This document shows, piece by piece, positions 3,099 to 63,314 of a DNA stretch of 64,000 nt; position 1 is the stretch's first letter; every line of letters begins with the position of its first letter. Source of the DNA: Candidatus Aenigmatarchaeota archaeon (lineage in GTDB: Archaea; Aenigmatarchaeota; Aenigmatarchaeia; JACPZZ01); contig JACPZZ010000001.1 of NCBI GenBank assembly GCA_016195275.1, forward strand, positions 3,046-67,045. Reading direction: 5' to 3'. Below the pieces are notes generated by a model. It saw only the letters and a list, made by a program, of their open reading frames with translations, was not told the DNA's origin and did not search any database. Position numbers and translations under genes: made by a program.

Positions 3099-3150
3099 AT
3101 CAAATCCCTTTCTTAAGAAGAAAGGTCTTTGAGAGCCCCAAAGAATCTTT

Positions 3151-3699: not shown

Positions 3700-3730
3700 G
3701 ACATAGATGCTCTGAGTATGCATCTATGTC
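3700..3730. repeat. 11-bp-stem hairpin 12 nt upstream of tRNA-Val(UAC)
   Basis: GACATAGATGC-tctgagtat-GCATCTATGTC. Confidence 0.7.
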
Positions 3731-3894: not shown

Positions 3895-3917
3895 GAAACA
3901 TACCTCTTGTATGTTTC
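3895..3917. repeat. GAAACAT/ATGTTTC hairpin about 10 nt upstream of tRNA-Ala
   Basis: GAAACATA-cctcttg-TATGTTTC. It belongs to the same arm family as the hairpins at 12833..13012 and 61780..61816. Confidence 0.65.
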
Positions 3918-3927
3918 AGTTTGAGCC

Positions 3928-4022
3928 GGGCCGGTAGATCAACGGTAGATCGCCACATTGGCATAAGGGAAAGAAAACTTCCAGAATTGTGGAGGCTTCG
4001 GGTTCGAATCCCGACCGGTCCA
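3928..4022 (+). tRNA. tRNA-Ala (anticodon GGC) with a canonical 23-nt intron (3964..3986, position 37/38)
   Basis: The acceptor GGGCCGG/CCGGTCC carries the G3:U70 Ala identity pair. The anticodon arm is CCACA TTGGCA^T...AA^T TGTGG. The bulge-helix-bulge reads TTGG|CA^T|AAG...CTT|CCAG|AA^T. The T arm is TCGGG TTCGAAT CCCGA. Confidence 0.85.
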
Positions 4023-4025
4023 AAT

Positions 4026-4151
4026 AAGCCTTCATAGGAAATCATAGATTTCCTATGCACGAAAATCTATGATTTTCGTTGTCTTTCGAAAGAAAGCCTT
4101 AACAGCGAAAATCAACGGATTTTCGCGTGTAGGAAACTAAAAGTTTCCTAC
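4026..4151. repeat. array of four short hairpins (GAAA/TTTC arm family) forming the 3' trailer of tRNA-Ala
   Basis: CATAGGAAATC-ata-GATTTCCTATG (4033..4057). CGAAAATC-tat-GATTTTCG (4060..4078). CGAAAATC-aacg-GATTTTCG (4106..4125). GTAGGAAAC-taaaa-GTTTCCTAC (4129..4151). Confidence 0.8.
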
Positions 4152-4170
4152 AGGGAAATGACGACACCCC

Positions 4171-6716: not shown

Positions 6717-6733
6717 CATCCTCCCACCACTAC

Positions 6734-6779
6734 ACAGGAAATCGTTGATTTCCTGTGCACGAAAACCATTGGGTTTTCG
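6734..6779. repeat. double-hairpin repeat, same family as 4033..4078 and 12608..12654
   Basis: ACAGGAAATC-gtt-GATTTCCTGT GCA CGAAAACC-att-GGGTTTTCG, directly after the stop codon of the 5412..6716 ORF. Confidence 0.8.
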
Positions 6780-7040
6780 TTGAAGCGTGTGGGCTTCCTG
6801 CGAGAGCGAAGTTGTATATCAGCCTACATCTTTCGGAGAGGTCTGACAGGACTGATTCCTGTTCTTCTGTTGGATTTATTTTTATCTGTTGCGTCAGTTG
6901 CATTACATCCCCTTTTGTTCTATGATGTATTTCTCTATTAGTTTATCCGAGATATGTCCGTGAGTTGAGACAAAATAGCTCCTTGTTTACGGTTCGCTCT
7001 CATCCCACCCGTAAACGGCGTGGATTTCCCGCTCACATTG

Positions 7041-11559: not shown

Positions 11560-12450
11560 TTAAATTGCCAGGTTGTATTTTGCTGGGTAAAACCAGTTCC
11601 CATCAGATTTTACATCCTCTGTTTTGATAACGAAACCTTTTGAATTGTATTTATGCAACATGTTTCGTATATGGCCTATTTTTCTTCCTAATAGCGGTAC
11701 CAGATCATTTGCTGTGAAATATCCCTTTGACTCTTGGATACTTCTCATGGAGGAGAAATAAATTTCGTTCACATGTTTTCTAGGAAACATTGACAGCTTT
11801 TTCAGGCCCACCAATTTATTAAGTTTATTACGCTTTTTTATGTGGCGCAAATTCAACATTTCGTTTAAACGTTCCAACCTCTCGAAAGAATTAATCTGTA
11901 TCTGCCAGCTTTTCCTCCAGACCCCGTTGGCGTGGCGGTATCGTCCATGCTGGTAAACCGAGCATTCGATGCCTATTTTTGACAGCAGCGTTCTAATATC
12001 ACAAATTAAATTGGACTGGCTTTCGCCTTCGACCACACATAACTTTATTCTTATGTAGTTGGCGTGCATGTTTACGGTTCCCTCATCGTCGATGATCTGT
12101 GATAAGAACTCCGCTATCTTGCTTTTGTTTAAACTGAATATGAATCCCGGCACGTGTGGGTTGTTTTCGACCTTCCTTCCAGGAATTAGTCCTATGTTTT
12201 CCAGACCTTTACCATATCTTGTTTGGTAAATAGATACGATCTTAACATCAGAATTTTTTGATTTCCTTCTTATGCTATATTTTAAATCTTTTCCAAAAAC
12301 ATTTTTAGCGTCCTTAATAAATCCGTAGATTAACCTACTATTAGAATTTGCATAATATGTTCTTCTCAGCCTATCCAAACAACCGTCGCCTAAAATGGCC
12401 CCGATTAATCTGACACCGCTTGTCGTGGTGAAATCAAATTCCTTTGGCAT
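11560..12450 (-). CDS. free-standing LAGLIDADG homing-endonuclease-like protein with a C-terminal winged-helix-like region
   Basis: Two LAGLIDADG blocks: VRLIGAILGDGCLD and IAEFLSQIIDDEGTVN. 296 aa, lying 3 nt from the EndoQ start and 71 nt from the tRNA-Ile 3' end. Confidence 0.75.
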   Translation of the reverse strand: MPKEFDFTTTSGVRLIGAILGDGCLDRLRRTYYANSNSRLIYGFIKDAKNVFGKDLKYSIRRKSKNSDVKIVSIYQTRYGKGLENIGLIPGRKVENNPHVPGFIFSLNKSKIAEFLSQIIDDEGTVNMHANYIRIKLCVVEGESQSNLICDIRTLLSKIGIECSVYQHGRYRHANGVWRKSWQIQINSFERLERLNEMLNLRHIKKRNKLNKLVGLKKLSMFPRKHVNEIYFSSMRSIQESKGYFTANDLVPLLGRKIGHIRNMLHKYNSKGFVIKTEDVKSDGNWFYPAKYNLAI

Positions 12451-12503: not shown

Positions 12504-12517
12504 AAAAAAATAAAAAA
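12504..12517 (-). terminator. oligo-T archaeal terminator after tRNA-Ile
   Basis: The minus strand reads ...CGGGCCCA CTCA TTTTTT A TTTTTTT immediately after the discriminator base. Confidence 0.6.
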
Positions 12518-12521
12518 TGAG

Positions 12522-12824
12522 TGGGCCCGACCGGAGTTTCCAAGCCTTTCCCTTTCCTGAAGGCCAAGGGTTTTCTTTTACCTTAAGGCTTTTCTTTTTC
12601 AAAGACAATGAAAACCATAGGTTTTCATGCATAGGAAATCATAGATTTCCTATGAAAGGCTTATTCGAACCGGCGACCTACGGCGTCTACGCAGCTTGAT
12701 CCGCAACGCCTTTGCGTTGCGCGCCTTATAAGACATGCGAGTTAGGAAATTGAAACCGGTGCATCCACAATAGCGCCGGTTTCCAGCTACAACACGTCGC
12801 TCTACCAAGCTGAGCTACAGGCCC
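12522..12824 (-). tRNA. tRNA-Ile (anticodon UAU) interrupted by three introns: 12794..12735 (60 nt, 29/30), 12725..12685 (41 nt, 37/38 or 38/39) and 12663..12536 (128 nt, T-loop 59/60)
   Basis: Exons join to a 74-nt cloverleaf: GGGCCTG TA GCTC AGCTTGGTA GAGC G ACGGT CTTATAA GCCGT AGGTC GCCGG TTCGAAT CCGGT CGGGCCC A. Intron 1 has a clean BHB (GCGA|CG^T ... TCGC|AT^G). Intron 3 is closed by AAGCCTTT/AAAGGCTT. Exon plus intron lengths sum exactly to 303 nt. Confidence 0.65.
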
Positions 12825-12832
12825 ACTGTTAA

Positions 12833-13012
12833 CTGAAACATATGCTGTTTGTATGCATATGTTTCTAGTTACTACGACTGAAGCATACCGAGGAAACTGA
12901 AACATACCGATACAGTATACGGTATGTTTCTAGCAGCCTATGCTTCCAGCTTTACGATATGCTTCTAGCTACTGACTGAAACATGCGCTATTGGTATTGC
13001 GCATGTTTCCAG
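12833..13012. repeat. array of CTGAARCAT...ATGYTTCYAG hairpins, partly nested, upstream of tRNA-Ile
   Basis: Hairpins at 12833..12868, 12897..12933 (nested inside the outer stem 12878..12949) and 12976..13012. An unpaired half-copy, CGATATGCTTCTAG, lies at 12955..12968. A conserved tail YAGYTRCTACG follows the copies. Confidence 0.8.
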
Positions 13013-13061
13013 TTGCTACGCTTTAATGAATTTCCGTCGCAAGCTTAAAAAGGGTTTGCTG

Positions 13062-13916
13062 TTACAGTTCGTACTTCTTGGTGTAGAATTTTTCGCCCTT
13101 GTCCAGATTCCGAAGCGGTTCCGGGAACAACGCCTCCAAACGTCCGTGAATTGCCGGAGAGGCTGCGAGTATTCCAAGGTCAACTATGTCCCATGATTTT
13201 TTACCGAAATTTGTGATTTTTAGCCCGCTTTCCACGGCTATTAAAGAAGCTGCGGCGTGGTCGAATATTTCTGTTAAGCCGTGGACAGCCGCGTCTATGC
13301 GACCCTGCGCTACCCTGCAAACGTCAAGCGCGGGTGAGAAATTAACCAGGCATACGTTAACATTCTCCTCCAGCTTCAACAGTTCCTTACGGTGATACTG
13401 AAACGTGCAGCCGACCAGGCATTCTTCCGTGGGCTTTTCCTTCGCGCTTTTTCCGATCAGTTTCCCGTTAAAAAATGCGCCGCCGCCTTTCTCGGATGTA
13501 AACGTCTCCCCGGTCATCGGGTTATATACTACCCCTACCATAGACTTTCCATTTTCGACGAGTGCGATTGAAACCGAGAAGTTGGGTATTCCAAACGAGA
13601 ATGCGCGTGTGCCGTCGATCGGGTCGACGACCCAAGTTTTGTTTCCTTTTTTAAACCCGGTTTCCTCCCCCAGAAAACCGTAGTCTGGATATTTTTCCAT
13701 AAGAAATTTTTTGATTGCGTTTTCGGATTCCAGATCCGCGTCCGTGACGACGTCCTTAATGTTTTTTGTTTTTACCTTAGGATTGTTGAATCTCTCCGAA
13801 AGTATTTTTCCTGCGGTTTCCGCCGCTTTGACCGCATCGTCCAGATGTGAATTCATAACTATTTTCAGATTATCGAACTTAAAAGGAAGACGCGTCATTT
13901 CAAATGTATGAAACAC
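13062..13916 (-). CDS. suhB: inositol monophosphatase / fructose-1,6-bisphosphatase family protein
   Basis: Motifs GFLGEETG, WVVDPIDGTRAF and FDHAAASLI (equivalent to WDxAA) are typical of the IMPase/FBPase family. Confidence 0.85.
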   Translation of the reverse strand: MFHTFEMTRLPFKFDNLKIVMNSHLDDAVKAAETAGKILSERFNNPKVKTKNIKDVVTDADLESENAIKKFLMEKYPDYGFLGEETGFKKGNKTWVVDPIDGTRAFSFGIPNFSVSIALVENGKSMVGVVYNPMTGETFTSEKGGGAFFNGKLIGKSAKEKPTEECLVGCTFQYHRKELLKLEENVNVCLVNFSPALDVCRVAQGRIDAAVHGLTEIFDHAAASLIAVESGLKITNFGKKSWDIVDLGILAASPAIHGRLEALFPEPLRNLDKGEKFYTKKYEL

Positions 13917-15572: not shown

Positions 15573-15799
15573 TAAACTGTCCTCAATGCAAACATGCTAT
15601 GAAAATGGAATATCGGCCAATGACATTTACTATTAATCCAAATATTATTGTGCAAGATGTGAAAACTAATGTGTGCGGACGCTGTGGCATGGATAGCGTT
15701 TCGCAGGATGAGTACGAATTAGTTAGAAAAAAAGTTCATCGTGTTGCAAAAGTTGGCGGAAATTCATTAGTAGTTACCTATCTACACAAAGCTAACTGA
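15569..15799 (+). CDS. putative antitoxin, YgiT/MqsA-type zinc-finger protein
   Basis: CPQCKHAM...VCGRCGMDSVSQDEY is a CxxC...CxxC YgiT-type finger. The last 22 nt overlap the convergent transposase gene. Confidence 0.5.
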   Translation: MINCPQCKHAMKMEYRPMTFTINPNIIVQDVKTNVCGRCGMDSVSQDEYELVRKKVHRVAKVGGNSLVVTYLHKAN

Positions 15800-16782
15800 T
15801 AGCTGATTTTCCTCAGCAGCCCCACCCACCTATTCCTTCCAAGTTCAAGATCTATCCCGGCCATGCTCGCTGGCGTCATCCTTAACGCCATGTGCGGACG
15901 GACGAAGTTGTAGTAATTGCGGAAACCAGTCGAGAAGACCGCCTCACCGCCCTTAAACCCTCGCATGACCTTATCCCGCTCTCGGAACGTGCCGTGAAAC
16001 CGCTCTACGAGGTTGTTGTCAGGCTTCTTGCGGATAGTTTCCAGCCGTATATGCTGAACGCCTTTTAGCCAGTATTTGTGGGTGTGATATTCGTCCTTTA
16101 ACGCCTGTTCATAGCTGTTCAGACCGTCCGTAACCACGAACTTTGGGACGGTTCCGGCTGTCTCTTTGGCGAACCTTAGAATTTGGCTCGCCTCGCCTAT
16201 TGTTCGTCCATTGGTTACGTTGTTGGCTATCAAAAATCGGGTCTTTTCGTCAACCATGTTCCAGACCCACTTCTCCCTGCCTTCGGACTTGATAGCCTGC
16301 TCGTCCAGATGCCACGCCTCGCTTAGCCTCGGTTTTGGGTCTTTGGTATATTCATTGATCTTCTCTGTGAATTTGGTTATCCATTGCCTGACTGTTTCGT
16401 GGCTTACGACAACACCGTAGAACTGTTTTAGCGTATCTGCGATCTCACGCAACGACAAACCTTTGTAATACAAATCCATAGCCAGCGTTGCTATCTTGCT
16501 GTCAACGCTCAAACGTGCAAAAATGCTGTCTTTGATAAAGGTCTTTTTGCAGTCGAGACATTGAAACCTCTGCTTAACGCCGTTGGCTGTTTTCCTGTTG
16601 CCGTTTTTCTTGACGTTAACGGATTTGCAGTATTCACATTTCGTTTTATCCTCATCCGCAAACGGTATTGTGCTGTCGTCAACCTTAACCCTCATTTTCA
16701 GCAGAAATTCGACTGCGTGAATGTGCTTACATTTTTCTTTCCTATGAACGAAATCGGGATTTTGCTTGATTTTGTTATTCAT
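15778..16782 (-). mobile_element. DDE transposase gene (IS6/IS240-like, with an N-terminal zinc finger); IS boundaries not resolved
   Basis: 334 aa. Zn-finger CEYCKS...CLDCKK. Catalytic-core-like WHLDEQAIK...VVTDGLNSY...NNLVERFHGTFRERDK...YNFVRPHMAL. No convincing terminal inverted repeats found by eye. Confidence 0.75.
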
Positions 16783-24017: not shown

Positions 24018-27000
24018 ATGATGATAAAACTTAACACTCTGATGCGGAAGGCTGCGGCCAAAAAACCAATGGTGCAAAACGCACCGGTTGAAATAAAACA
24101 GGACGCGTCGAAGGCTGTTGTAAGGGCGATTTCCAAGGCTGTCCCGCCTGCAAGCGGCAAAAAATTAATTGTCCCCAGACAAAAAGTGAAACTTGTTGTA
24201 AAAAGACTTCTCGGCATCTCTTCCGGCAAAGAAAAGAAACCGGAAGACCCTTTTGAAGAACTTGTCAAAAATCCGCACGCATTGAAAAGGGCGGCAGAAA
24301 AGTACGGAGTTTCCGAAGCCTCTATAGAAGATATTTACAAACGCCTGCAAAGGCTGGAAGAGGGCAAGGGTGCGCATCTGGGAGCCGAAGACGCCATGAT
24401 GCTGCGAAACGAGCTGGCCTCGCTTAGAGCTGCGCCGGATTTCGGAAGGCTAAGCGACATAGACGAAATAAGGCAGGCTTTTTCAGAAATCGAAGGCAGG
24501 CTTGCCGGGGAGAGCGGCGCGGACAAGCTTCGCGAGGCGGAAATAGAGAGGGAAAGCATAATCAAATCAAAGGACGAGATTGAGAGAAAATATTACAAAA
24601 GGGAAATCGACGAGGCCACTTTCAAAAAAATGATGTCGGATTATGAACAGCAGCTGATAAAAACCGAATCCAAGATCAAAGCGTACAAGGCCGAAGGTAT
24701 TACATCGGAACCGCGGCCAAGCGTTAACATGAACAGGGTTTTTGAAAAATATGCCAAAGGGTTCAAGGCTGTTTATTTCCCTGCCTATCCGCAGATGGCT
24801 GTGCCGATGGCCATGCAGCCCGCCCAACAAACTGTGCAACAGACGCAAACATCCGAACTTATAAGGCCGCTCATAGCCGTGGAGAGCAGGACGATAATAT
24901 CGAAAAACGTCGTGGACGGCATGGAAATACCGGAACCCGAACGAAAAATTTCGCTAATGGAGACCGAAGAGCCGGAAAGCATGATGAACATAAACGTAGT
25001 TTACCCGCTGATACCGAGGGCTCCGGCCAAAGGGGAACTGGTTTACTCTTACACAAACATAAAATGGGATCCAAAAGAGAACGGGCTTGTTTACAGCTTG
25101 TTTGAGCCTGCTCTCACGCCGGAAGAAAAAAGGATATTAGCCAAGAGCAAAGAGTTGCTCGAAGAGAGGTTAAACATCGACCTGCGAAAACTTCGAAAGG
25201 TCGAAGCTGTAAACTATTTGATGAGACAAACGGATGAAGTTTTTTCCGTGATGGGCGTTAAGCTGGACCAGAAAAGGGTGGACGTGCTGAAATATTATAT
25301 CAGGCGTGATTTCGTCGGCCTGGAAAGAATAGACCCGATGATGAATGACCCAAACATAGAGGACATAAGCTGCGACGGAACGAACATACCTATCTACATA
25401 TTCCACAGGAATCCGTTGATAGGTTCCATAAGGACAAATGTAAAATTCCCTGACCAAAGATCCCTGGACACATTTACGGTGAAACTTGCGCAGAGAGCGG
25501 GCAAGGCCATATCTGTTGCAGAACCCCTGCTCGACGGGACATTGCCGGACGGTTCGCGCGTGCAAGCTACGCTAGGCACGGACATAGCAAGGCGCGGGTC
25601 CAATTTTTGCATCAAAGAAGGTTATGTGCAAATGTCTGACGGTTCAATCGAGGATATAAAAACGCTCTTTGAAAACTGGAAAAAATCCAATGGCGTTAGT
25701 ACCGATGAATTTGGAAATGAGCTTGCGGTTCCTATCAACTCCTACGCTGCCGGCGTCCATCATGACAGTTTAGAGCAAGAAAAAGGAAAGATTATCCAAA
25801 TATTAAAACTGCCGCCTCCCGAAAGGCTGGTCAGGGTTAGTTTCGCAGAGTGTGGTAAAACCAACTCGTGTTTAGAGGTAACCGAAAATCATATGTTTCA
25901 TGTCCTTACCGGGGCGGCGGGCATAGAAACACTAGAGTCCAATAAACTTAAGCCTGGCTTATGGGTTCCCGTTCCGGTACAGATTGAGGCCGAGGGCAAC
26001 CTTTCTGAAGAAGATTTTCTTGCCTCTGTTTTAAATTGTCTCAAAAACTCTGCCCCTGGCAGGGTTTATGTAAAAATTGACCAAAAAACCAAGCAGTATA
26101 TAACTTATTCTGATTCTCCCAATAAGCTGAAGGATATAAAAAGAGGCAAAACCACCAGCATGCCTATTGCAGAATTCCTGAAAAACTTGCAAATAAACAG
26201 GCAAAGCATTGATGATGTCAAGGCTGTTTATTGCATACTTAGAAACGGGAAAGAAGGCAGGGGGGCTGTTATAAGGGTGCCATTGAAATTAACGGAAAAA
26301 CTTGCTTATCTCGTGGGTTGGGTGGCGGGGGACGGGTCGCTTACTAAGGATAATATCAGCATACATACAGGCCTGAATGAAGATTATAAGAAATCAGTAA
26401 TGGGAACGATCAATGAATTATTTGGTATAAATGGTAAAACGTACAAAAATGATGAAAACAGAATTTATATCAATAGCAAAATCTTAGCAAAACTGATGCA
26501 TGAAGTTTTTGAGATTCCGTACGGTTACAAGTCTAGAAAAGTCGATGCGCCCAAGATTATCCAAAAATCAAAAAATATAATAGTTTCAAAGTTTTTACAA
26601 GGGCTGTTCGAGGCGGATGGAAGCCTTGGCAGCAACATCAATTTAACTACTTTTTCCAAGAATATGGCCACAAAAGTGATCTTCCTGCTTTCCCGTCTGG
26701 GTGTGTACTCTACCTTTAATACGGATGGAAATTGCCACAGGATTTATGTTCCTTCCGCCTATTACAGAAAGTTCTCGGAGAACGTGTTTTCCAACGATAA
26801 AATCGAAAACCTGGTGAAAAATCAAAAAAAGACGAAAATATCGAATGTCTTGCCGTCGCTCTTTTTGGATAATTTGCTGAAGCAATGTAAAGACAATGGA
26901 ATAAAATCGAATGCCATATCGCATATACTGCACCCTTCTGAGATAAGAAAAAGCGGAAAACTGACTTTTAGCAAAATCAAATCATTGAATACTTTGCTTA

Positions 27001-29582
27001 AGAGCCGCGTAGAAAATGATCTTACAAATGCCGTAGACAGGTTATTGAGGGGGGATCTGGAATTTAAAAGGGTGTCAAAAGTAGAGGTTTTAGACAACAA
27101 AAATGGATCGCCGGTCTATGATATCTCATGCAACCCTGTCACTTTTTACGTGGGCGGAAAAGATACGCCTCTGTTCGTGCACGATACAATAAGGAAATTC
27201 ACGGATGTGCCGCTGACACCCGTGGATATGATGAACTACGGGACAATAAACGCCACCGCGTTGGCTTACCTCTGGATGGCTGTGGAACAGGGCAAATCGG
27301 TTTTGATAGGCGGCTCAACGGCGTCCGGAAAGACAACTTTGCTTAACGTGCTTTCGCTTTTCATAAAGCCGACCAAAAAAATCGTTTCCATAGAAGACAG
27401 CGTGACCGGAGACTCCGAAATTCTGGTCAACAGGGGCGGGTCGTTTGAAAAATTGCCGATTGGAAAATTGGTGGACGAACAGATAGAGAAGTACGGCAAC
27501 GAAAAGGACGTCTTCGGCACGGAATACTGCCAAATGAATCCGGAGGGTGCGCAAGTTTTTGCCATGGATACCGAAGGGAAAATAAAACTTTGCCCGGTAA
27601 GATCCTTTGTCAGGCACCGTGTAAACAAAGACGTTCTTGAGGTCACAACAAGGGCCGGCAGGAGAATCAAAGTTACGGGTGACCATTCACTTTTTTCCCT
27701 GGACTTAAATGGAAAAATAGTTCCGGTAGAAGCGAGAAACCTGCTAAAGGAAAGTTTTATAGCGACGCCAAGAATATTGCCGCATAACACCGGAAGGCTG
27801 GAAAGCATCAACCTGTTTTCCAGAGTAAAAGATTTGGAAGGCGTATTCGTGGAAGGGGACGGATTGAAACATATCCCAATGCCGGAGTTGGTGAGGGCGG
27901 GCGCGACGGGATATCAAAAAAACAAATGCGTTACAGACGGCCTGCTTCCCGTGGAAATTTTCAGCAGGCTTGGCAACGCCGAAGAATTTGCCGGGGCGCC
28001 GGATGGACTTTCAATAAAGGCCGGGCGGGGAGGCAGGGGTGTGAAAGCTGTTCTCAAACTAACGGACGAGTTTTTGGTATTGGTCGGTCTTTGGCTTGCA
28101 GACGGGTGTTATGACAAAAATTCAGTTTTGATATCTGCTGCGAATGACGCCGAATGCAAATACTCCATAGAGCAGGCGGCATCCCAGTTGGGGCTGGGCT
28201 GCAAATACCATAGCGACGGGATAACGTACATTATAAACTCCGCCGTACTCAGACAGGCGATGGAAAAAACTCTCGGAATATGCGGCGGCGCGTATACGAA
28301 AAGGGTTCCCAACTGGGTGTACAATTTAGGGATTGAGCAGATTTCCTGCCTACTAAAAGGTTATTTCAGCGGGGACGGCTCGGTTTCAAAGGATGAGATA
28401 GAGGCAAGTTCTTCATCCATCGGACTGATTAAAGACATACACACCCTGATGCTAAGGCTGGGAATAATGTCGAGGTTTACTACCAAGATCAAAGAGCGCG
28501 ATAAAACCTATAGGATTCGGATAAGCGGCTCTGAAAACCTGAAGTTGTTCTGTGAAAAAATCGGTTTTTTGCAAAAATACAAGCAGGAAAAGCTGGCTAA
28601 CCGGTCCTTGGTCTTCGCAAACCATACCGTTACCGATGTTATTCCGGTTACGAAAGAATTTTTGAGCGCGCTGGCCGGGGAGGGCGCAATTTTTAACAGC
28701 AATTCATATTGGTACGGCAGTAAAATAGGCAGGAATGCCATGGGTAAAGCTGTTTTGCAGGGCGATGGCAAATTCTTGGACAAGGCAGCGCAGCTTGCAA
28801 ATTCGGATCTTCTCTGGGACGAGGTGCTGGAAATACGAAACCTAGGCAAAACAGACCTTTATGTTTATGACCTCAGCGTCCCGGGTTTTGAAAATTTCGT
28901 GTGCGAAAATGTGGTCGCACACAACACGCCGGAACTTAGGCTACCGCACCCTCACTGGGTGCCAGAGGTTGCGAGAACCGCGATATCCGCGACTGACGGA
29001 AAAAAGATGGGGGAGGTTGACATGTTCGACCTTTTGCGCGAAAGCCTGCGGCAAAGACCGGATTACATAATTGTCGGCGAGGTAAGAGGCAAAGAGGCGT
29101 ACGTCCTGTTCCAGCAGATGGCTTCGGGGCATCCCGGAATGTCAACTATACACGCTGACAGCATATCAAAGCTCGTGGACAGATTAACAACCCCCCCAAT
29201 AAGCCTGCCCGGCAACCTTATACAGAACCTTGACATACTGATATTCAGCGACACAACTTCGTTCAAGAACAAGAATGTGAGAAAGATAGACACCATAATG
29301 GAAATGTTGGGGTATGAAAACGGCGCGCCTGTCGGAAACGTCCTGTTCAAATGGGATCCTGTAAAAAATTATCTGCGCGTCGTGGGAAAAAGCGCCATAC
29401 TCAAAAAGATAGCATATTCGAGCAACATGTCGGAAAAGGCTGTGCGGGAGGAGATTTTAAACAGGGTAAAGGTTCTGGAATGGATGCAAGAAAGGGGCAT
29501 AAACGATTTCACTTCCGTGGCCAGGATATTCAGCATGTACAATTCCGACCCGGAAAAAGTCCTGAACGCGATTGGGCAGTAA
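24018..29582 (+). CDS. type II/IV secretion (FlaI/PilB/VirB11-KlbA-type) ATPase carrying two inteins; extein about 819 aa with a long coiled-coil N-terminal extension
   Basis: Extein motifs: ...ATLGTDIARRGSNF|TIRKF...GGSTASGKTTLLN (Walker A) ...KIVSIED|TPELRLPH (Walker B region) ...IIVGEVRGKEAYVLFQQMASGHPGMSTIHA. Confidence 0.9.
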   Translation: MMIKLNTLMRKAAAKKPMVQNAPVEIKQDASKAVVRAISKAVPPASGKKLIVPRQKVKLVVKRLLGISSGKEKKPEDPFEELVKNPHALKRAAEKYGVSEASIEDIYKRLQRLEEGKGAHLGAEDAMMLRNELASLRAAPDFGRLSDIDEIRQAFSEIEGRLAGESGADKLREAEIERESIIKSKDEIERKYYKREIDEATFKKMMSDYEQQLIKTESKIKAYKAEGITSEPRPSVNMNRVFEKYAKGFKAVYFPAYPQMAVPMAMQPAQQTVQQTQTSELIRPLIAVESRTIISKNVVDGMEIPEPERKISLMETEEPESMMNINVVYPLIPRAPAKGELVYSYTNIKWDPKENGLVYSLFEPALTPEEKRILAKSKELLEERLNIDLRKLRKVEAVNYLMRQTDEVFSVMGVKLDQKRVDVLKYYIRRDFVGLERIDPMMNDPNIEDISCDGTNIPIYIFHRNPLIGSIRTNVKFPDQRSLDTFTVKLAQRAGKAISVAEPLLDGTLPDGSRVQATLGTDIARRGSNFCIKEGYVQMSDGSIEDIKTLFENWKKSNGVSTDEFGNELAVPINSYAAGVHHDSLEQEKGKIIQILKLPPPERLVRVSFAECGKTNSCLEVTENHMFHVLTGAAGIETLESNKLKPGLWVPVPVQIEAEGNLSEEDFLASVLNCLKNSAPGRVYVKIDQKTKQYITYSDSPNKLKDIKRGKTTSMPIAEFLKNLQINRQSIDDVKAVYCILRNGKEGRGAVIRVPLKLTEKLAYLVGWVAGDGSLTKDNISIHTGLNEDYKKSVMGTINELFGINGKTYKNDENRIYINSKILAKLMHEVFEIPYGYKSRKVDAPKIIQKSKNIIVSKFLQGLFEADGSLGSNINLTTFSKNMATKVIFLLSRLGVYSTFNTDGNCHRIYVPSAYYRKFSENVFSNDKIENLVKNQKKTKISNVLPSLFLDNLLKQCKDNGIKSNAISHILHPSEIRKSGKLTFSKIKSLNTLLKSRVENDLTNAVDRLLRGDLEFKRVSKVEVLDNKNGSPVYDISCNPVTFYVGGKDTPLFVHDTIRKFTDVPLTPVDMMNYGTINATALAYLWMAVEQGKSVLIGGSTASGKTTLLNVLSLFIKPTKKIVSIEDSVTGDSEILVNRGGSFEKLPIGKLVDEQIEKYGNEKDVFGTEYCQMNPEGAQVFAMDTEGKIKLCPVRSFVRHRVNKDVLEVTTRAGRRIKVTGDHSLFSLDLNGKIVPVEARNLLKESFIATPRILPHNTGRLESINLFSRVKDLEGVFVEGDGLKHIPMPELVRAGATGYQKNKCVTDGLLPVEIFSRLGNAEEFAGAPDGLSIKAGRGGRGVKAVLKLTDEFLVLVGLWLADGCYDKNSVLISAANDAECKYSIEQAASQLGLGCKYHSDGITYIINSAVLRQAMEKTLGICGGAYTKRVPNWVYNLGIEQISCLLKGYFSGDGSVSKDEIEASSSSIGLIKDIHTLMLRLGIMSRFTTKIKERDKTYRIRISGSENLKLFCEKIGFLQKYKQEKLANRSLVFANHTVTDVIPVTKEFLSALAGEGAIFNSNSYWYGSKIGRNAMGKAVLQGDGKFLDKAAQLANSDLLWDEVLEIRNLGKTDLYVYDLSVPGFENFVCENVVAHNTPELRLPHPHWVPEVARTAISATDGKKMGEVDMFDLLRESLRQRPDYIIVGEVRGKEAYVLFQQMASGHPGMSTIHADSISKLVDRLTTPPISLPGNLIQNLDILIFSDTTSFKNKNVRKIDTIMEMLGYENGAPVGNVLFKWDPVKNYLRVVGKSAILKKIAYSSNMSEKAVREEILNRVKVLEWMQERGINDFTSVARIFSMYNSDPEKVLNAIGQ
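25608..27185 (+). mobile_element. intein 1 of the pilus ATPase (526 aa, LAGLIDADG homing endonuclease domain)
   Basis: Starts CIKEGYV after GSNF and ends PLFVHD before TIRKF. LAGLIDADG blocks: LAYLVGWVAGDGSL and SKFLQGLFEADGSL. The terminal residue is Asp (codon GAT at 27183..27185), not Asn. Confidence 0.85.
27399..28925 (+). mobile_element. intein 2 of the pilus ATPase (509 aa, LAGLIDADG homing endonuclease domain)
   Basis: Starts SVTGDSEILV after KIVSIED and ends NVVAHN before TPELRL. LAGLIDADG blocks: LVLVGLWLADGCY and LLKGYFSGDGSV. Confidence 0.85.
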
Positions 29583-35300: not shown

Positions 35301-35401
35301 CCTGTACATTAACCTTCGCTTTTATGCTTGGGTTTGGATAGAGTCACAGACTCCAGTACGGAAGCGTCAGGTTATCTGTTCGCTGACAGATTTTAGGGCT
35401 A

Positions 35402-35450
35402 TTAGAAAACCTTTGGTTTTCTAATTGAGAAAATCTAACGATTTTCTCAA
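35402..35450. repeat. double-hairpin repeat, second copy at 63246..63292
   Basis: TTAGAAAACC-ttt-GGTTTTCTAA TTGAGAAAATC-taac-GATTTTCTCAA. Confidence 0.8.
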
Positions 35451-36702: not shown

Positions 36703-39700
36703 TTGAGCGATAAAACAATAGAAAAGGCCGAGAAGGTCAAAAGCGCACAGGAGATGTCGCGGGACCAGAGGGAAATTTCCGTTTCGGAGTTTTTTGAGAA
36801 AAACAGACATCTTCTCGGCTATGACAACAAGGTGAAGGCGTTATTGACCGTTGTTAGAGAGGCTGTCGATAACAGCCTTGATGCTTGTGAAACGGCGCGC
36901 ATAGTCCCTGACATAAAAGTTTCTGTTAAGCCTGTTAATGACGTGAAGGACAGATACGTTATATTAGTCGAGGATAACGGGCCCGGGATTGTAAAACAAA
37001 ATATTGGCCGTGTGTTCGGAAAACTGTTGTTCGGGTCAAAATTTCATAAGCTTATCCAATCATTGACCGGGGACGAGCCTGTTTTTGTGATACGAAACGG
37101 CAAAACCGAAATAATACCGATAGGAAACCTAGTAAATTCTTACCTTCAACCCGAAGAAACTGAAAAGAACGTGTTAGATCATGATCTTCTTGTACCGGCT
37201 TTCGACCGTGAAACATACAAATACAGATTCGCGAGAGTGAGCCATGTAATACGGCACAAAAGGGAAAATGAGATTGTTAAGCTTACTTTAAACACAGGAA
37301 GGACTCTTAAAGTAACAGGTTGCCACAGCATATTCTCAATAAATCCTGCGACTGGCGGGCTTGAAGAAACCGAGGCAAGAAACCTAAAAATCGGGGACTA
37401 TATAGCGATTCCCAAAAAGCTGCCTTCTTTAGAGATTTCCGAAATTAACCTTCTGGACTACTTAAGTTACGAGCATATCAAAGACAACTGGGCTTACGTT
37501 TACGGCATAAACGGCGGTATTTTTGAAAAACTTATTGAAGGTGCTGAGGCTGTGCATAAAAAGACGGACAAGAGCAGAAAATATTACAGGCTGTTTACCG
37601 GAAACAAAGAACCCGTAGACATATTAGACGACAGCATGAAACAATACATGAACAAAAACTTCCTGCCAATTCAGCTTGTGCTAAAGCTGGGGCTGAAAGA
37701 CGCGGTAAAAGGCGGTTTCATCAAAACTTATTGTCGTGGCAAGGAGACGAGAATACCTGTTTCTCTGGAAATGACGGACAAACTGGCCAGGTTCTTGGGG
37801 TTGTTCGTGGCAGAAGGTCACAGCGATAAAAGGCAGATAGCACTGACCTTCGGCAGGCATGAAGACCATCTTATTGACGAAGTTCTTAATTTCGCAAGAA
37901 TATTCGGTTTGAATACCACCCTAGAACACAGAAAAAATTCCATTAGGATCAAGCTGTTTGGTAATATGTTCGTAAAATTTGTATCCGATGTTTGTGGTGT
38001 GGGCGCCCACAACAAAAAAGTGCCGGAGTTTGTTTTCAGAGCCGGCCACATCATGCGCCAGCACTTCTTGGACGCTATTTACCAAGGCGACGGCCACAAA
38101 GTGAAAGGAAGGAATAACATAATGCTCAATACAGTTAGCAAACGGCTTGCGAATGAAATAATGTACCTGTGGTCCATGCAAGGCATAGCCGCCTGCATAA
38201 CCAGCCGAACAAATAAGAACGGTTTAGGCAGATTCCCTTCTACCTGTTACGTAGTCAATGTTTACGGGAACGATATAAACAAATCCTTTGTTTATTCTTG
38301 CCCGAATACGGAAAGGACAGCAAGACAGATAGAATACGAGTCTGTAAAACAAATCTCCATAAACTCCAACCAATTGGTTAAGAGTAAGCTTATCGAGTCT
38401 GATATATTGATGGTTAAAATCAGGAACATTGAAACAATAAACGAAGGGCACGATCTCGTCTATGACCTTTCAGTTACAAAATCCGAAAATTTCGTTGGCG
38501 GTTTCGGGGGAATTGCATGCCACAACAGCCGCGGACAACAGGGCATAGGCATTTCGGGCGCAGTGCTTTATTCACAATTAACGAGCGGCAAGCCCTCTAA
38601 AATTGTTACGTCCACAGGCGACGGCAAGACGCATTACATGGACCTGATGATCGATACGTTCAAAAATGAGCCGGAAATTCTCAAGGAAGAGATAAAGGAA
38701 GGAAAAAGTTGGCACGGCGTCAAAGTCGAAATGGAGGTGGAGGGAAAGTACGTTGAACACCAGCAGTCAATTTCGGAGTATCTGAAACAAACGGCGATGT
38801 CAAATCCCTACGCAGAAATAATTTACGACTCGCCCAACGGCAAAATTAAATTTGAACGCTCGGTAAAAACGCTTCCCGAGGAGCCGAAATCGATTAAACC
38901 GCATCCGCACGGCGTAGAAATAGGAATTTTGAGGCGAATGCTCAAAACGACAGAAGCGCGCACGCTAACAGGGTTTTTCACAAGCGATTTTTCCAGGGTC
39001 GGCCAAAGCTCTGCAAAAGAAATAATAAGGCTTGCAAAGCTTGGCGACGATGTGGGCCCGAAAAACATAGACGGCCCGCAGGTAGAAAAGCTGTTTCAGG
39101 CAATACAACAGGTGCAATTGATAAAACCTCAGTTGGATTGTTTATCGCCTCTCGGGGAAAAATTAATAGAGGAGGGTTTGAAGAAACAACTGAAGCCCGA
39201 GTATGTTGTTGCAATAACGAGGCCGCCGGATGTTTACCGAGGAAACCCGTTCCAGATTGAATGTTGCACGGGGGATACAAAAATAATTTTGGAAAACGGG
39301 TCGGTTGTTGACATAAAAAATTACATCGAAAACGGTATGTTCAAAAAATACGACAAAGTGCTGTCAATGACAAAGGATCTAAAGATAAAACCCCAGAAGG
39401 TTCACGCTGTGCAAAAATTCAAAAATGTGCACAAGATCCTGAAGATAGAAACCAGGACAGGAAGGGTGCTTAAATTAACCCAGAACAACGAGCTTCCAAC
39501 GATAATCAACGGAGAAATAATATGGAAAGCAGCCGGCGAACTCGGGGCCGGGGATTTTGTAGCAACCCCGAGGAGACTGGCCGTTGACGGGAGAAAACCT
39601 CACATTTTGGAGTTAATGGACGAAGATTGTGTAAAGGTACATGATATAGAGGCTGTAAGATATTTGATGTCCAAATGCGCATCGAAATTTTACGGTATCA

Positions 39701-41361
39701 AGAATGTTGCAAAAAATCTTGGAATAGATTACAACACCCTAAAAAGTTACAACCGGAAGAACTCGTCAGTCGGCAGGCCGACACTTTCGACACTGAGAAA
39801 ATTGTGCGAGTTGTCAGGTTCCGATTACCCCGGCACGATGAAATCTGTCAAAGAAATATCCTACGCAGACAACGGTTTTCCGAATCCTGTGAAGATAACA
39901 GTGCCGGACGTATGCGAAGACCTGCTTTATGTACTGGGGCTGCTAAATTCCGATGGTTATATTAGCAAACGAGAAATCGTGTTTACAAATATCGATCCCA
40001 CGCTGCACGAGGCGTTTGCTCAAAAAACTGAAAAGTTATTCGGTATTAAAGTAAAAAGCTATAGACCGTTCACATCGTCGTTCTCAAATAAAACCGTGTA
40101 TAATGTGTTGCGGGTCCTTGAGGATCATCTTCCGGAGTTGGACGACAGTCTTATAGTTTCTTGGCTTAAAGGCGTTGCCGACGGGGATGGGTGGGTGGCC
40201 TGTAGAAAAGGAAAAATCAGATCTATAGGCATTGCCACCGCAAAAAGAAATGAGGCGGAATTTGTGCAAACAATGCTTTTGAGGTTGGGTATACAATCGA
40301 AAATTGAAAGGCAGCTTCCTAGCAACACCGTAGGAAAGACAGGGGACAGGATCATAAAAACATTGAAGCCGAAGGATAACATAGTCATATACGATTTCTG
40401 GAACGTTGCAAAGTTCGCCTCTTTAGTTGGTTTCAGACAGCAAAAAATGGCGAGAAGGCTCGCTGAATCCATTGTTAACACGATAGACTGCAAGCAACAG
40501 CATGATGTATTGGATGTTGGCGTATTACTCAAACGGCTGAGGCAAGAAAATGGCTTATTCCAACATTCCTTGTGCTTTTCGGATCAGACGATAAGGCAGG
40601 CGGAAAAATCTAACCGGATGCTAACGCGCAACAACTTACAGTCGTTGCTGACCTCGAAGCAGCTTAAGGGTGATGCCTACGGAGCCTTAAAGCTGCTGGC
40701 ATTCTCGGATATTCTGTGGGACAGGATAATCGGTATAACAGAGGTCCCACACGAAGAATATGTTTATGATCTTACTATGGAATCGGATAATTTTGTAGCC
40801 GACAATATCGTGATGCATAACTGCGGCATCGCTTATGGTGGCGAGCTGCCGGCGGAGTCTGTTGCGACATTGTACAGGTTCGCGAACCGTGTTCCGCTAA
40901 TGTACCAGGCCGGCGATTGCGCGCTGGCGAAGGCTGTTAGTGAAATTGAATGGCGCAGATACGGGCTGGAACAGGGTTCCGGTGCGTCATTGCCGACGGG
41001 CCCTGTTGTAATATTCATTCATATCGCGTCTGTTTGGGTGCCTTTTACATCCGAATCGAAAGAGGCGATTGCCTCATACCCGGAAATAATCAAGGAAGTA
41101 AAACTCGCACTCCAGGACGCCGGGCGAAAAATGAGCATTTACGTGAACAAGAAGAGAAGGGCCGGCGAGGCTGCGATGAGGATAAGCCTGTTTGAAAAAT
41201 ACATACCAGAAGTTTCCGACGCATTGGCAAGGTTAAGCGGCGCAGACAAACATAAAATCGCCTCTAAGCTTGAAAATATGCTAAAGAAGGGAAAAATCGT
41301 AATAGAGGATACGGGAGAACAGGAAGAGGACAAAAAAACCGCCAAGGAAGAGGATGAATAA
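36703..41361 (+). CDS. top6B: DNA topoisomerase VI subunit B carrying two inteins (extein about 543 aa)
   Basis: TTG start. GHKL motifs: VREAVDNSLDA, VEDNGPGI, GKLLFGSKFHKLIQ|SRGQQGIGISGAVLYSQ. Transducer: GNPFQIE|CGIAYGG. Confidence 0.92.
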   Translation: MSDKTIEKAEKVKSAQEMSRDQREISVSEFFEKNRHLLGYDNKVKALLTVVREAVDNSLDACETARIVPDIKVSVKPVNDVKDRYVILVEDNGPGIVKQNIGRVFGKLLFGSKFHKLIQSLTGDEPVFVIRNGKTEIIPIGNLVNSYLQPEETEKNVLDHDLLVPAFDRETYKYRFARVSHVIRHKRENEIVKLTLNTGRTLKVTGCHSIFSINPATGGLEETEARNLKIGDYIAIPKKLPSLEISEINLLDYLSYEHIKDNWAYVYGINGGIFEKLIEGAEAVHKKTDKSRKYYRLFTGNKEPVDILDDSMKQYMNKNFLPIQLVLKLGLKDAVKGGFIKTYCRGKETRIPVSLEMTDKLARFLGLFVAEGHSDKRQIALTFGRHEDHLIDEVLNFARIFGLNTTLEHRKNSIRIKLFGNMFVKFVSDVCGVGAHNKKVPEFVFRAGHIMRQHFLDAIYQGDGHKVKGRNNIMLNTVSKRLANEIMYLWSMQGIAACITSRTNKNGLGRFPSTCYVVNVYGNDINKSFVYSCPNTERTARQIEYESVKQISINSNQLVKSKLIESDILMVKIRNIETINEGHDLVYDLSVTKSENFVGGFGGIACHNSRGQQGIGISGAVLYSQLTSGKPSKIVTSTGDGKTHYMDLMIDTFKNEPEILKEEIKEGKSWHGVKVEMEVEGKYVEHQQSISEYLKQTAMSNPYAEIIYDSPNGKIKFERSVKTLPEEPKSIKPHPHGVEIGILRRMLKTTEARTLTGFFTSDFSRVGQSSAKEIIRLAKLGDDVGPKNIDGPQVEKLFQAIQQVQLIKPQLDCLSPLGEKLIEEGLKKQLKPEYVVAITRPPDVYRGNPFQIECCTGDTKIILENGSVVDIKNYIENGMFKKYDKVLSMTKDLKIKPQKVHAVQKFKNVHKILKIETRTGRVLKLTQNNELPTIINGEIIWKAAGELGAGDFVATPRRLAVDGRKPHILELMDEDCVKVHDIEAVRYLMSKCASKFYGIKNVAKNLGIDYNTLKSYNRKNSSVGRPTLSTLRKLCELSGSDYPGTMKSVKEISYADNGFPNPVKITVPDVCEDLLYVLGLLNSDGYISKREIVFTNIDPTLHEAFAQKTEKLFGIKVKSYRPFTSSFSNKTVYNVLRVLEDHLPELDDSLIVSWLKGVADGDGWVACRKGKIRSIGIATAKRNEAEFVQTMLLRLGIQSKIERQLPSNTVGKTGDRIIKTLKPKDNIVIYDFWNVAKFASLVGFRQQKMARRLAESIVNTIDCKQQHDVLDVGVLLKRLRQENGLFQHSLCFSDQTIRQAEKSNRMLTRNNLQSLLTSKQLKGDAYGALKLLAFSDILWDRIIGITEVPHEEYVYDLTMESDNFVADNIVMHNCGIAYGGELPAESVATLYRFANRVPLMYQAGDCALAKAVSEIEWRRYGLEQGSGASLPTGPVVIFIHIASVWVPFTSESKEAIASYPEIIKEVKLALQDAGRKMSIYVNKKRRAGEAAMRISLFEKYIPEVSDALARLSGADKHKIASKLENMLKKGKIVIEDTGEQEEDKKTAKEEDE
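37060..38526 (+). mobile_element. Top6B intein 1 (489 aa, LAGLIDADG domain), inserted in the ATP-lid motif
   Basis: Starts SLTGDEPVFV and ends GIACHN followed by SRGQQGIG. Blocks: LARFLGLFVAEGHS and RQHFLDAIYQGDGHK. Confidence 0.85.
39262..40821 (+). mobile_element. Top6B intein 2 (520 aa, LAGLIDADG domain)
   Basis: Starts CCTGDTKIIL and ends NIVMHN followed by CGIAYGG. Blocks: LLYVLGLLNSDGYI and IVSWLKGVADGDGWV. Confidence 0.85.
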
Positions 41362-47648: not shown

Positions 47649-48461
47649 TCAACCCACAAAATGGAAGGGGGGCCAGGGCCCAGAAAATCGAACAGATAGT
47701 CCATGTATTTTATTGGTCTCTTCCAAGAACTTGCCTAAGGCTTCGATTTTGCTATTATGCACGAGACAGGATAGATTTAGAATCATCTCTTTGTCTTTCC
47801 ATTTTCCATCTTCTATATTAATTGTTTTTTCGGCTTTCATTTCTTCCGCAGAGTCTTTAACCTGATCACAAATTTTTTTAGAATATTCTTTATAATATTC
47901 CTCCACCTTCCTCCTTGTTTCATTGATAACTATCAGCTCAAGTTTTTTCTGAAGAACGTAAGCAATGCCCTTGGGCTTCGTTTCAATGTCCATTTTTAAC
48001 CTTTGAATTTCCTCGTTGGTGCTTTCAATTTCTTGGCTAGTGGAACCAGTATCCATGAAAATTTGAATATCGTATTCTGCTTTTCCGTCTAATCTTTCTA
48101 AACTGTTTTTAAGCTTGTGATACTCCGCGCTTAACCATTTCCTTACGTCATCCTCGGTTCCTTTGATTATAGTGTCAAAGGCAAACGGAACGACAGCGCC
48201 GAATTTTTTTGCTGCTGCGTCAATCGTATACAGATGCGAAAAAAGCCACGATTTCACCTCTTCCTCTTTGTTTGATTTGTATGGTTTAGCCAAGCATTTG
48301 TGGACTATGACGCCTATGTCCTTATATAGTATGGCATACACCCTATTATTCCCTATTCCTATGTTCCCAAAACCGGTTTCTGCGCCGCAATTGGTTACAC
48401 AATAGAGATATACGCCTTCGCCAACACTCTCTTCACATTTAACATCATTCACTTTTTTCAC
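47649..48461 (-). CDS. gvpL: gas vesicle protein GvpL/GvpF family
   Basis: GVYLYCVTN...FGNIGIGNNRVYAILYKDIGVIVH...FSGPWPPFHFV. Confidence 0.8.
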   Translation of the reverse strand: MKKVNDVKCEESVGEGVYLYCVTNCGAETGFGNIGIGNNRVYAILYKDIGVIVHKCLAKPYKSNKEEEVKSWLFSHLYTIDAAAKKFGAVVPFAFDTIIKGTEDDVRKWLSAEYHKLKNSLERLDGKAEYDIQIFMDTGSTSQEIESTNEEIQRLKMDIETKPKGIAYVLQKKLELIVINETRRKVEEYYKEYSKKICDQVKDSAEEMKAEKTINIEDGKWKDKEMILNLSCLVHNSKIEALGKFLEETNKIHGLSVRFSGPWPPFHFVG

Positions 48462-61779: not shown

Positions 61780-61816
61780 CTGAAACATATGCCATACGAA
61801 AAGCATATGTTTCTAG
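61780..61816. repeat. CTGAAACAT...ATGTTTCTAG hairpin 7 nt upstream of tRNA-Phe
   Basis: CTGAAACATATGC-catacgaaaa-GCATATGTTTC(T)AG followed by TTACGAC, then the tRNA. Confidence 0.8.
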
Positions 61817-63229: not shown

Positions 63230-63314
63230 CTGAAGCATATCGTAATTAGAAAACCTATGGTTTTCTAATTGAGAAAACAGCTGTTTTCTCAATACTGTAT
63301 CGATATGCTTCTAG
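63230..63314. repeat. nested hairpin element: the outer stem CTGAAGCATATCG/CGATATGCTTCTAG encloses the double hairpin 63246..63292
   Basis: The inner hairpins TTAGAAAACC-tat-GGTTTTCTAA and TTGAGAAAAC-agc-tGTTTTCTCAA match 35402..35450. The conserved tail TTGTTACG follows. Confidence 0.8.

Follow-up and report, generated by a model that had tools for sequence, protein, structure and literature searches.

A tRNA-Ile(UAU) gene with three predicted introns in an Aenigmatarchaeota archaeon, two of them apparently built from tRNA-associated hairpin repeats

Introduction

Transfer RNA (tRNA) genes with three introns are known from Thermoproteales, as in the tRNA-Glu(UUC) of Pyrobaculum calidifontis and the tRNA-Pro(UGG) of P. 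islandicum (PMC4390854). The nearest experimental precedent for the locus described here comes from ARMAN-2 (Micrarchaeota), in which pre-tRNA-Ile(UAU) carries a 25-nucleotide (nt) intron at position 37/38, pre-tRNA-Cys carries a 13-nt intron at 59/60, and the epsilon2 endonuclease cleaves both in vitro (PMC3239211). The present locus occupies positions 12522-12824, minus strand, of a 64,000-nt stretch of DNA from Candidatus Aenigmatarchaeota archaeon (assembly GCA_016195275.1, contig JACPZZ010000001.1, positions 3,046 to 67,045, forward strand), referred to below as the window. The combined comparisons confirm it as a real archaeal tRNA-Ile(UAU) gene, with four exons and, as predicted from sequence, three protein-spliced introns.

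As in the Thermoproteales multi-intron tRNAs, each intron is bounded by a strict or relaxed bulge-helix-bulge motif. Unlike them, the gene belongs to a member of the Aenigmatarchaeota, within DPANN, and not of the Crenarchaeota; the isoacceptor is another one, and one intron reaches 128 nt with a nested repeat. The locus shares with ARMAN-2 the DPANN affiliation, a tRNA-Ile(UAU) as AUA decoder with an anticodon-loop intron, and a relaxed-motif intron at 59/60; there the two sites lie in separate genes and the introns are short, whereas here both sites and a third intron are combined in one gene. Homologous introns at different positions of different tRNAs have been described in Thermoproteales (Fujishima 2010, as cited in PMC4090602 and PMC4390854). 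Likewise, one family of the present locus (family A) is found at 59/60 of tRNA-Ile and at 37/38 of tRNA-Ala; relative to the Thermoproteales introns as portrayed in those two sources, the families here also occupy trailers, leaders and intergenic DNA, with nested insertions. The tRNA-Thr(GGU) locus of Caldiarchaeum subterraneum is heterogeneous in intron number, which has been attributed to mobile DNA (PMC3293823). Intron number at one tRNA locus is polymorphic here as well (at population or clade level), but the element there is 1.8 kb long and encodes a recombinase, whereas here the elements are non-coding hairpin repeats of 30-130 nt.

Three-intron tRNAs, 59/60 introns and tRNA-Ile(UAU) in DPANN are thus each already described. 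A preliminary description of the locus had noted multiple non-canonical introns as documented mainly in Thermoproteales; such cases are indeed known there, but the context here is DPANN, whose lineages show elevated tRNA gene disruption and whose endonucleases carry an extra loop associated with disrupted tRNA genes (PMC5829648). Its remark that a UAU anticodon is rare in archaea agrees with a count of 2 of 167 genomes (PMC6000648), yet tRNA-Ile(UAU) without TiaS has been described for ARMAN, Nanoarchaeum and Korarchaeum (PMC3239211, PMC6000648), making the combination less surprising than assumed. What appears to be new, from sequence comparison, is the derivation of intron 1 from a leader hairpin family, and the sharing of the intron 3 family with tRNA-Ala introns and trailers, together with a nested 49-nt repeat.

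Results

Gene structure and the spliced tRNA

On the minus strand the gene consists of seven segments whose lengths sum to 303 nt (30+60+9+41+21+128+14), as the preliminary description had reckoned. In order of transcription, the segments and the elements around them are as follows.

13043..13054, minus strand: putative promoter, BRE/TATA-like (BRE, transcription factor B recognition element), CCCTTTTTAAGC
12835..13009, minus strand: 5' leader region with three GAAAC...GTTTC hairpins (12835-12865, 12899-12930, 12978-13009), the nearest of which ends 10 nt before tRNA position 1
12795..12824, minus strand: exon 1, 30 nt; acceptor 5' strand, D arm, G26 and positions 27-29; the same in all 7 orthologs
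12735..12794, minus strand: intron 1, 60 nt, site 29/30; strict bulge-helix-bulge
12726..12734, minus strand: exon 2, 9 nt; positions 30-38, GTCTTATAA, holding the anticodon TAT
12685..12725, minus strand: intron 2, 41 nt, adjoining the anticodon at 38/39 (or 37/38 with C38); relaxed bulge-helix-bulge; present in every ortholog
12664..12684, minus strand: exon 3, 21 nt; anticodon stem 3' strand, variable loop, T stem 5' strand and T loop to A59
12536..12663, minus strand: intron 3, 128 nt, site 59/60 in the T loop, family A; 3-of-4 central helix
12522..12535, minus strand: exon 4, 14 nt; T60, T stem 3' strand, acceptor 3' strand and discriminator A73
12504..12517, minus strand: oligo-T terminator, T6 A T7; a similar T tract lies 3' of every ortholog

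Removal of the three segments 12794..12735, 12725..12685 and 12663..12536 leaves a perfect 74-nt cloverleaf, GGGCCTGTAGCTCAGCTTGGTAGAGCGACGGTCTTATAAGCCGTAGGTCGCCGGTTCGAATCCGGTCGGGCCCA. The spliced 74-mer is called tRNA-Ile(tat) by ARAGORN, and its minimum-energy structure in RNAfold is the cloverleaf itself (-30.3 kcal/mol). Read from the sequence, it has all universally conserved tRNA positions (U8, A14, G18G19, A21, U33, A37, G53-U54-U55-C56, A58 and C61), together with the G15:C48 pair and A73. The body is of the class I isoleucine type, with anticodon UAU, A73, a 5-nt variable loop and A37, and the anticodon arm, GACGGTCTTATAAGCCGTAGGTC, recurs in the Micrarchaeota tRNA-Ile(UAU) genes L070 and L101 once their introns are removed (L numbers denote loci in other assemblies). 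Other cut sites would permit an anticodon TAG (Leu), but the short variable loop and class I body exclude that reading. On the minus strand the gene closes with TCCGGTCGGGCCCA; runs of T6 and T7 come next, and there is no encoded CCA. The promoter-like CCCTTTTTAAGC lies about 220 nt upstream of the gene and nearer to it in relatives, the motif CTTTTTAAGCTTG being kept upstream of the orthologs in L132, L133 and L136.

The unspliced locus escapes standard annotation. ARAGORN makes no tRNA call on it with or without the intron option, and Rfam finds no tRNA at gathering or permissive thresholds, the permissive search returning weak chance matches only (small nucleolar RNA, microRNA, CRISPR-DR54). 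From a version of the locus lacking introns 1 and 3, ARAGORN does recover tRNA-Ile(tat), with an intron of 41 nt. ARAGORN is positive on the spliced product and negative on the intact locus; the gene, its three interruptions, their coordinates and the UAU anticodon stand as in the preliminary description. Elsewhere in the window, tRNA-Val(CAC), tRNA-Val(UAC) and tRNA-Phe(GAA) are found by both ARAGORN and Rfam; tRNA-Ala(GGC) (3928-4022, with a 23-nt canonical intron) is found by Rfam, and by ARAGORN only when introns are allowed. Neither tiaS nor a tRNA-Ile2(CAU) is seen in the 64-kb window (4 other tRNAs by ARAGORN, 26 open reading frames scanned). A genome survey relying on ARAGORN and Rfam would miss the present gene and could wrongly infer an organism unable to read AUA; DPANN tRNA sets have often been reported as incomplete for such reasons (PMC5829648).

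Geometry of the intron junctions

The cut rule, after the second bulge nucleotide, was first checked on the tRNA-Ala intron of the window and then applied to each junction. In that control the central helix is UUGG/CCAG, the bulges are CA^U and AA^U, and the cut falls after the second bulge base. Intron 1 follows the same rule, with an outer helix of 3 base pairs (bp; AGA/TCT), a complete central helix (4/4, GCGA/TCGC), bulges CG^T and AT^G, and an inner helix of 4 bp (GTTG/TAAC); it is strict by geometry, and the clean motif given for it in the preliminary description is upheld. In intron 3 the outer helix is the 5-bp T stem, the central helix pairs at 3 of 4 positions (TTCG/GGAA), as had been described, the bulges are AA^T and AC^T, and the inner helix extends over 9 bp; but for the single central-helix mismatch, the motif is strict.

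In intron 2 the central helix is formed by U33-U36 and GUAG of the intron (TTAT/GTAG; U.G, U-A, A-U, U.G), so that the anticodon is paired with the intron, and the bulges AA^G and AC^G are both 3 nt long. Of eight cut pairs that give a 7-nt anticodon loop, 38/39 alone yields a 4/4 central helix, the canonical 37/38 pair yielding 1/4. The exact cut is left open by the sequence: cutting at 38/39 would give the loop CUUAUAA (A38), and the ARAGORN placement would give CUUAUAC (C38). The anticodon is UAU in either case. An intron beside the anticodon loop, as proposed earlier, is thus borne out together with the anticodon, but its precise boundary is not fixed.

After removal of the inserts the cloverleaf is canonical, and every junction pairs in a strict or recognised relaxed motif, as in archaeal tRNA genes with bulge-helix-bulge introns; the anticodon and class I body are those of the UAU class of AUA-decoding tRNA-Ile.

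Conservation of exons and turnover of introns among orthologs

Orthologs were sought with the pattern GTAGCTCAGNNNGGTAGAGCGACG, one genome per species. Among the matches listed, at least five Aenigmatarchaeota loci have an identical exon 1, and three further versions of the gene come from contigs encoding the closest EndoQ homologs. The parsed set comprises eight complete genes, that of the window and seven orthologous loci in Aenigmatarchaeota assemblies. In all orthologs the tRNA lies between a divergent helix-turn-helix (HTH) regulator and EndoQ; the window adds an inositol-monophosphatase gene and a LAGLIDADG-like gene on either side of the tRNA. Gene length ranges from 136 to 303 nt across the eight, and all splice to the same 74-mer with 0-1 differences, the sole difference being U65C in two genes, which converts a G.U pair to G-C. 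Such agreement among the seven orthologs and the window goes far beyond chance. EndoQ and the HTH protein beside the gene share just 56-84% identity, so the nearly invariant tRNA exons are under strong purifying selection.

Each of the eight genes has two or three introns, distributed over four sites in total.

Site 29/30: occupied in the window only, among the eight genes
Site 38/39: occupied in all eight genes
Site 44/45: occupied in L016, L022, L027, L032 and L136
Site 59/60: occupied in the window (128 nt), L133 (80), L132 (125), L022 (38) and L032 (65), by three unrelated families

Empty sites are found for two of the three introns of the window. At intron 1, GAGCGACG runs directly into GTCTTATAA, with no intron, in L016, L022, L027, L032, L100, L132, L133 and L136; at intron 3, GGTTCGAA is contiguous with TCCGG in L016, L027 and L136. 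Because relatives are contiguous across the exon 1-exon 2 and exon 3-exon 4 joins, introns 1 and 3 can be taken as validated by read-through, the strongest evidence available, short of RNA, for introns under selection. The site of intron 2 is filled in all relatives, with no empty site within the clade. The contig of the closest relative, L131 (EndoQ 84% identical), ends short of the tRNA, and intron 1 is represented by one copy.

A decaying pseudogene, that is, a tRNA-Ile gene broken by mobile hairpin repeats and yielding no tRNA, would fit the derivation of introns 1 and 3 from dispersed repeats, the imperfect motifs of introns 2 and 3, and the failure of standard tools to see the gene. It is nevertheless improbable, given that the 74-mer differs by 0-1 from orthologs in genomes whose proteins diverge by 16-44%, that every insertion lies in a correctly phased bulge-helix-bulge, and that the terminator and the conserved promoter-like upstream motif are kept. 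The relatives, moreover, hold two or three introns each: in this clade the gene is normally interrupted.

At 59/60 the families are A (window and L133), B (L132) and C (L022 and L032). All share one layout: the T stem, a central helix paired at 3 of 4 positions, a pair of 3-nt bulges, and an inner helix that measures 6-9 bp in four of the five genes (window, L133, L132, L022); in L032 an extra T breaks it after 3 bp. Comparison of the window with L133 shows a G-C to G.U change at one inner-helix pair, with pairing kept, and a difference at one bulge base.

The sequence comes from a metagenome bin, in a region rich in repeats, as would be expected of a chimeric contig assembled from tRNA fragments and repeats. 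Such an artefact is scarcely credible, however, in view of the identical sequence in two Logan assemblies from different runs (SRR12113409 and SRR12113410, both reproducing the locus at 100% identity, with L002 covering the whole tRNA gene). The neighbouring EndoQ-family and LAGLIDADG-like proteins also match those of a Candidatus Aenigmarchaeota archaeon metagenome-assembled genome in NCBI at 100% (69-kb contig, locus tag HY051_00090), and the assemblies L133, L134 and L135 independently have this family A intron in the same position.

Intron 2 has constant ends, GGC.CG and AAGCTG(T)GCGTAGAC, between which an internal hairpin is swapped for different self-complementary sequences among relatives: CGCAACGC/GCGTTGCG in the window, CGCAAGC/GCTTGCG in L016 and CGTGACGCG/CGCGTCACG in L133. 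In L022, L027 and L100 the loop of this hairpin contains a 38-nt palindromic insertion relative to L016 and L032, a further case of insertion into a hairpin loop. In the Micrarchaeota, where single-intron tRNA-Ile(UAU) genes are present at loci L037, L070 and L101, the intron lies at 37/38 with a strict motif, and its 3' part ends in TAAG or TGAG plus a bulge. In the Aenigmatarchaeota intron 2 a remnant of this, TAAG in some genes and CAAG in others, persists upstream of the unvarying GUAG, which fits a one-base shift of the splice sites.

In the five genes with an intron at 44/45 (L016, L022, L027, L032, L136), the outer helix of that intron is made by the GAC end of the 38/39 intron and GUC of the variable loop; the 44/45 intron must therefore be cut before the 38/39 intron. 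The window gene is without a 44/45 intron yet keeps the GUAGAC end.

Hairpin repeats as the source of introns 1 and 3

By alignment, introns 1 and 3 consist of repeats whose families are also found around other tRNA genes of the window, a relation unnoticed in the preliminary description. Two repeats lie within the introns.

12752..12783, minus strand: GAAAC...GTTTC hairpin, 32 nt, inside intron 1; member of the tRNA-leader hairpin family
12606..12654, minus strand: double-hairpin repeat module, 49 nt, nested in intron 3; missing from the collinear L133 intron

Intron 1 aligns without gaps, flanks included, to the leader hairpins of tRNA-Ile, tRNA-Phe and tRNA-Ala (GTAGYAACTRGAAAC, 22 nt, GTTTCAGTT). 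Hairpins of the GAAAC...GTTTC type number only six in 64 kb, and all are tRNA-linked, so that intron 1 is, on this comparison, a copy of a tRNA-leader hairpin element.

The leader hairpins are mostly 31-32 nt long (3895-3917 and 61782-61813 on the plus strand; 12835-12865 on the minus strand; 12899-12930; 12978-13009). At tRNA-Ala, tRNA-Phe and tRNA-Ile, the end of the closest hairpin lies exactly 10 nt ahead of position 1, the copy at tRNA-Phe being reversed; tRNA-Val(UAC) has another 31-nt hairpin (3700-3730), 12 nt upstream. The leaders of relatives carry similar hairpins, some nested in one another (L022, L032, L016, L133). These elements possibly serve as a leader-processing or spacing signal, or are mobile elements that prefer this site. 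A degenerate array of clustered regularly interspaced short palindromic repeats was considered for the GAAAC...GTTTC units and rejected, the would-be spacers being themselves palindromic.

Intron 3 and the 80-nt 59/60 intron of L133 are 94% identical over 67 nt and collinear save for the 49-nt block. The block follows the module pattern CAYAGGAAATC-N3-GATTTCCTRTG-C-AYGAAAAYC...GRTTTTCRT, of which the window holds other copies at 4033-4079, 6733-6780 and 4105-4152 (inverted). Nine metagenome contigs (L122-L130) also carry it, untranslated or intergenic, with compensating changes in both stems. Because this 49-nt module is dispersed elsewhere and has no counterpart in the collinear L133 intron, the block is a nested insertion of a dispersed repeat in intron 3. 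The module has no match in Rfam or in the viral contigs scanned. Single hairpins related to it lie at 35401-35425 and 63244-63270, and in L126 one module sits inside the loop of the second hairpin of another copy.

With the module left aside, family A can be aligned to four other sequences: the tRNA-Ala introns of L027 (at 37/38) and of the window (a shorter one), the 3' trailer of the window tRNA-Ala, and an intergenic copy in L126 that has a second module nested in a hairpin loop. Homologous introns thus occupy different positions of non-orthologous tRNA genes, which is the hallmark of the transposable type of tRNA intron. For family B, the counterpart is the 3' trailer of the window tRNA-Val(CAC), to which the opening 36 nt of the L132 intron are 94% identical; these 36 nt also resemble the tRNA-Ala trailer of L027.

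The tRNA 3' trailers are pyrimidine/purine hairpin cassettes of families A and B, located at 3099-3150 after tRNA-Val(CAC) and at 4023-4104 after tRNA-Ala. The tRNA-Ala trailer consists of family A and modules in the window and of family B in L027 (7263-7200, minus strand), with the same start just after CCAAA. Because families A and B begin at the same point after CCAAA, trailer cassettes are exchanged at a fixed site. In a search for insertion targets, in which target-site duplications were also sought, some cassette junctions share C-N-A-A^T and others do not.

Introns 1 and 3 are accordingly viewed as probable recent, lineage-specific gains made of small repeated hairpins. More tentatively, and at somewhat less than even odds, this clade could be creating non-canonical introns now: mobile hairpin cassettes would insert and survive where a bulge-helix-bulge can fold, families of 30-130 nt filling leaders, trailers, intergenic DNA and each other's hairpin loops. 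If so, the family turnover at 59/60 and the nested insertions would be snapshots of active intron gain, with the splicing endonuclease as a tolerance system. No report of the same intron families in leaders, trailers or intergenic DNA, or nested, was found in the open-access literature, and the origin of non-canonical archaeal tRNA introns is described as still unknown (PMC4090602). With one gene, four sites filled or empty and three families at one site, the clade offers a natural system for intron gain, and introns traceable to non-intron repeats make intron origin directly testable by comparative genomics and simple biochemistry.

Proposed splicing pathway

The favoured explanation, at a probability of roughly 0.85, is a functional tRNA-Ile(UAU) gene, the AUA decoder of an Aenigmatarchaeota (DPANN) archaeon, spliced by the tRNA-splicing endonuclease. 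What is observed is the structure of the gene, the geometry of its junctions, its orthology, the conservation of its exons and the homology of the repeats; transcription, cleavage, ligation, splicing order and intron roles are modelled on the known archaeal pathway. Transcription from the promoter-like CCCTTTTTAAGC would give a long precursor made up of a three-hairpin leader, the body of 303 nt and an oligo-T stop. In the three motifs (29/30, 38/39 and 59/60), the archaeal tRNA-splicing endonuclease would then cut the six bulges, an RtcB-type ligase would join the four exons, the leader would be trimmed, and CCA would be added. Cutting is probably sequential, because the D stem is opened by the intron 1 motif and U33 belongs to the motifs of introns 1 and 2 alike.

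Several observations weigh against this explanation. The intron 2 motif is relaxed: its central helix includes two G.U pairs, its inner helix has only 2-3 bp, and its outer helix is shifted by 2 nt, with U31 and C32 looped out. In intron 3 the central helix contains a G-G mismatch. The intron 1 motif needs the D stem opened, and the motifs of introns 1 and 2 cannot form simultaneously, U33 being common to both. In the thermodynamic fold of the whole precursor, part of the intron 1 central helix forms and neither of the other motifs does. Three-intron splicing is inferred here from DNA, and the genome view for the endonuclease type, RtcB, tiaS and a second AUA decoder is that of the 64-kb window.

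In a rival reading the gene is functional but at least one interruption is not removed by the splicing endonuclease in cis, the 14-nt 3' piece, for example, being trans-spliced or the T-loop insert being processed by other nucleases. Split and tri-split tRNAs do exist in Nanoarchaeum and Caldivirga (PMC4390854), and the 128-nt insert has terminator-like hairpins followed by T-rich tails. The pieces are collinear, however, on one strand, within 303 nt and with one terminator; the longest T run within intron 3 is T4, and the 59/60 motif is well formed and recurs in three intron families, which makes such processing very improbable. A box C/D or H/ACA RNA, by comparison with the tRNA-Trp intron of Haloferax, was considered for intron 3 and rejected: inspection by eye revealed no C box (RUGAUGA), D box (CUGA) or pseudouridylation pocket.

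Intron 2 appears from its distribution to be old and common to the whole clade. Because it is kept in every relative and pairs U34-A35-U36 with the intron, it may, speculatively, have a role in anticodon modification, as in eukaryotic tRNA-Ile(UAU). In eukaryotes the intron of tRNA-Ile(UAU) is needed to modify U34/U36, preventing the misreading of AUG. A clade-wide anticodon-pairing intron in tRNA-Ile(UAU) parallels the eukaryotic case; a eukaryotic tRNA of the same isoacceptor has almost the same three-intron layout, and the question of intron-dependent U34/U36 modification is common to both. The endonuclease complex there is different, and there is no evidence of common intron descent. Yeast Pus1 acts on pre-tRNA-Ile(UAU) in intron-dependent anticodon modification (PMC9602550).

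Genomic neighbourhood

The window also encodes EF-1alpha, a thermosome subunit and gas-vesicle proteins. Around the tRNA and farther away, the following genes are present.

11560-12450, minus strand: free-standing LAGLIDADG-like open reading frame (HY051_00090) between the tRNA and EndoQ; present in L131, missing from most relatives
13062-13916, minus strand: inositol-monophosphatase-family gene; in the window, L132 and L136 it separates the tRNA from the HTH regulator
15778-16782, minus strand: IS6/IS240-type DDE transposase gene, 3 kb from the tRNA
24018-29582, plus strand: very long open reading frame; type II/IV secretion-family ATPase, intein-interrupted, with LAGLIDADG homing-endonuclease sequence
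36703-41361, plus strand: very long open reading frame; topoisomerase VI subunit B, apparently with two LAGLIDADG homing-endonuclease inteins
47649-48461, 50615-51277 and 53459-54526, all minus strand: two GvpL/GvpF and one GvpN gas-vesicle genes

The LAGLIDADG-like open reading frame has three database homologs only, at 44-46% identity. On the two contigs examined, the homologs (P0122 and P0124) are immediately upstream of an EndoQ gene, and the surroundings contain no tRNA. As an intron mobiliser it was rejected, its homologs adjoining EndoQ genes away from any tRNA; with EndoQ it looks like a rare gene pair and not an intron-homing enzyme. No evidence ties the transposase gene to the hairpin repeats. 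Selfish elements abound in this genome, whether as DNA, as RNA or as protein. Gas-vesicle genes are unexpected in a DPANN-type archaeon, presumed to be a small-genome symbiont. The inositol-monophosphatase gene is not found in L133/L135, L022, L032 or L016, and its distribution splits the clade differently from the intron pattern.

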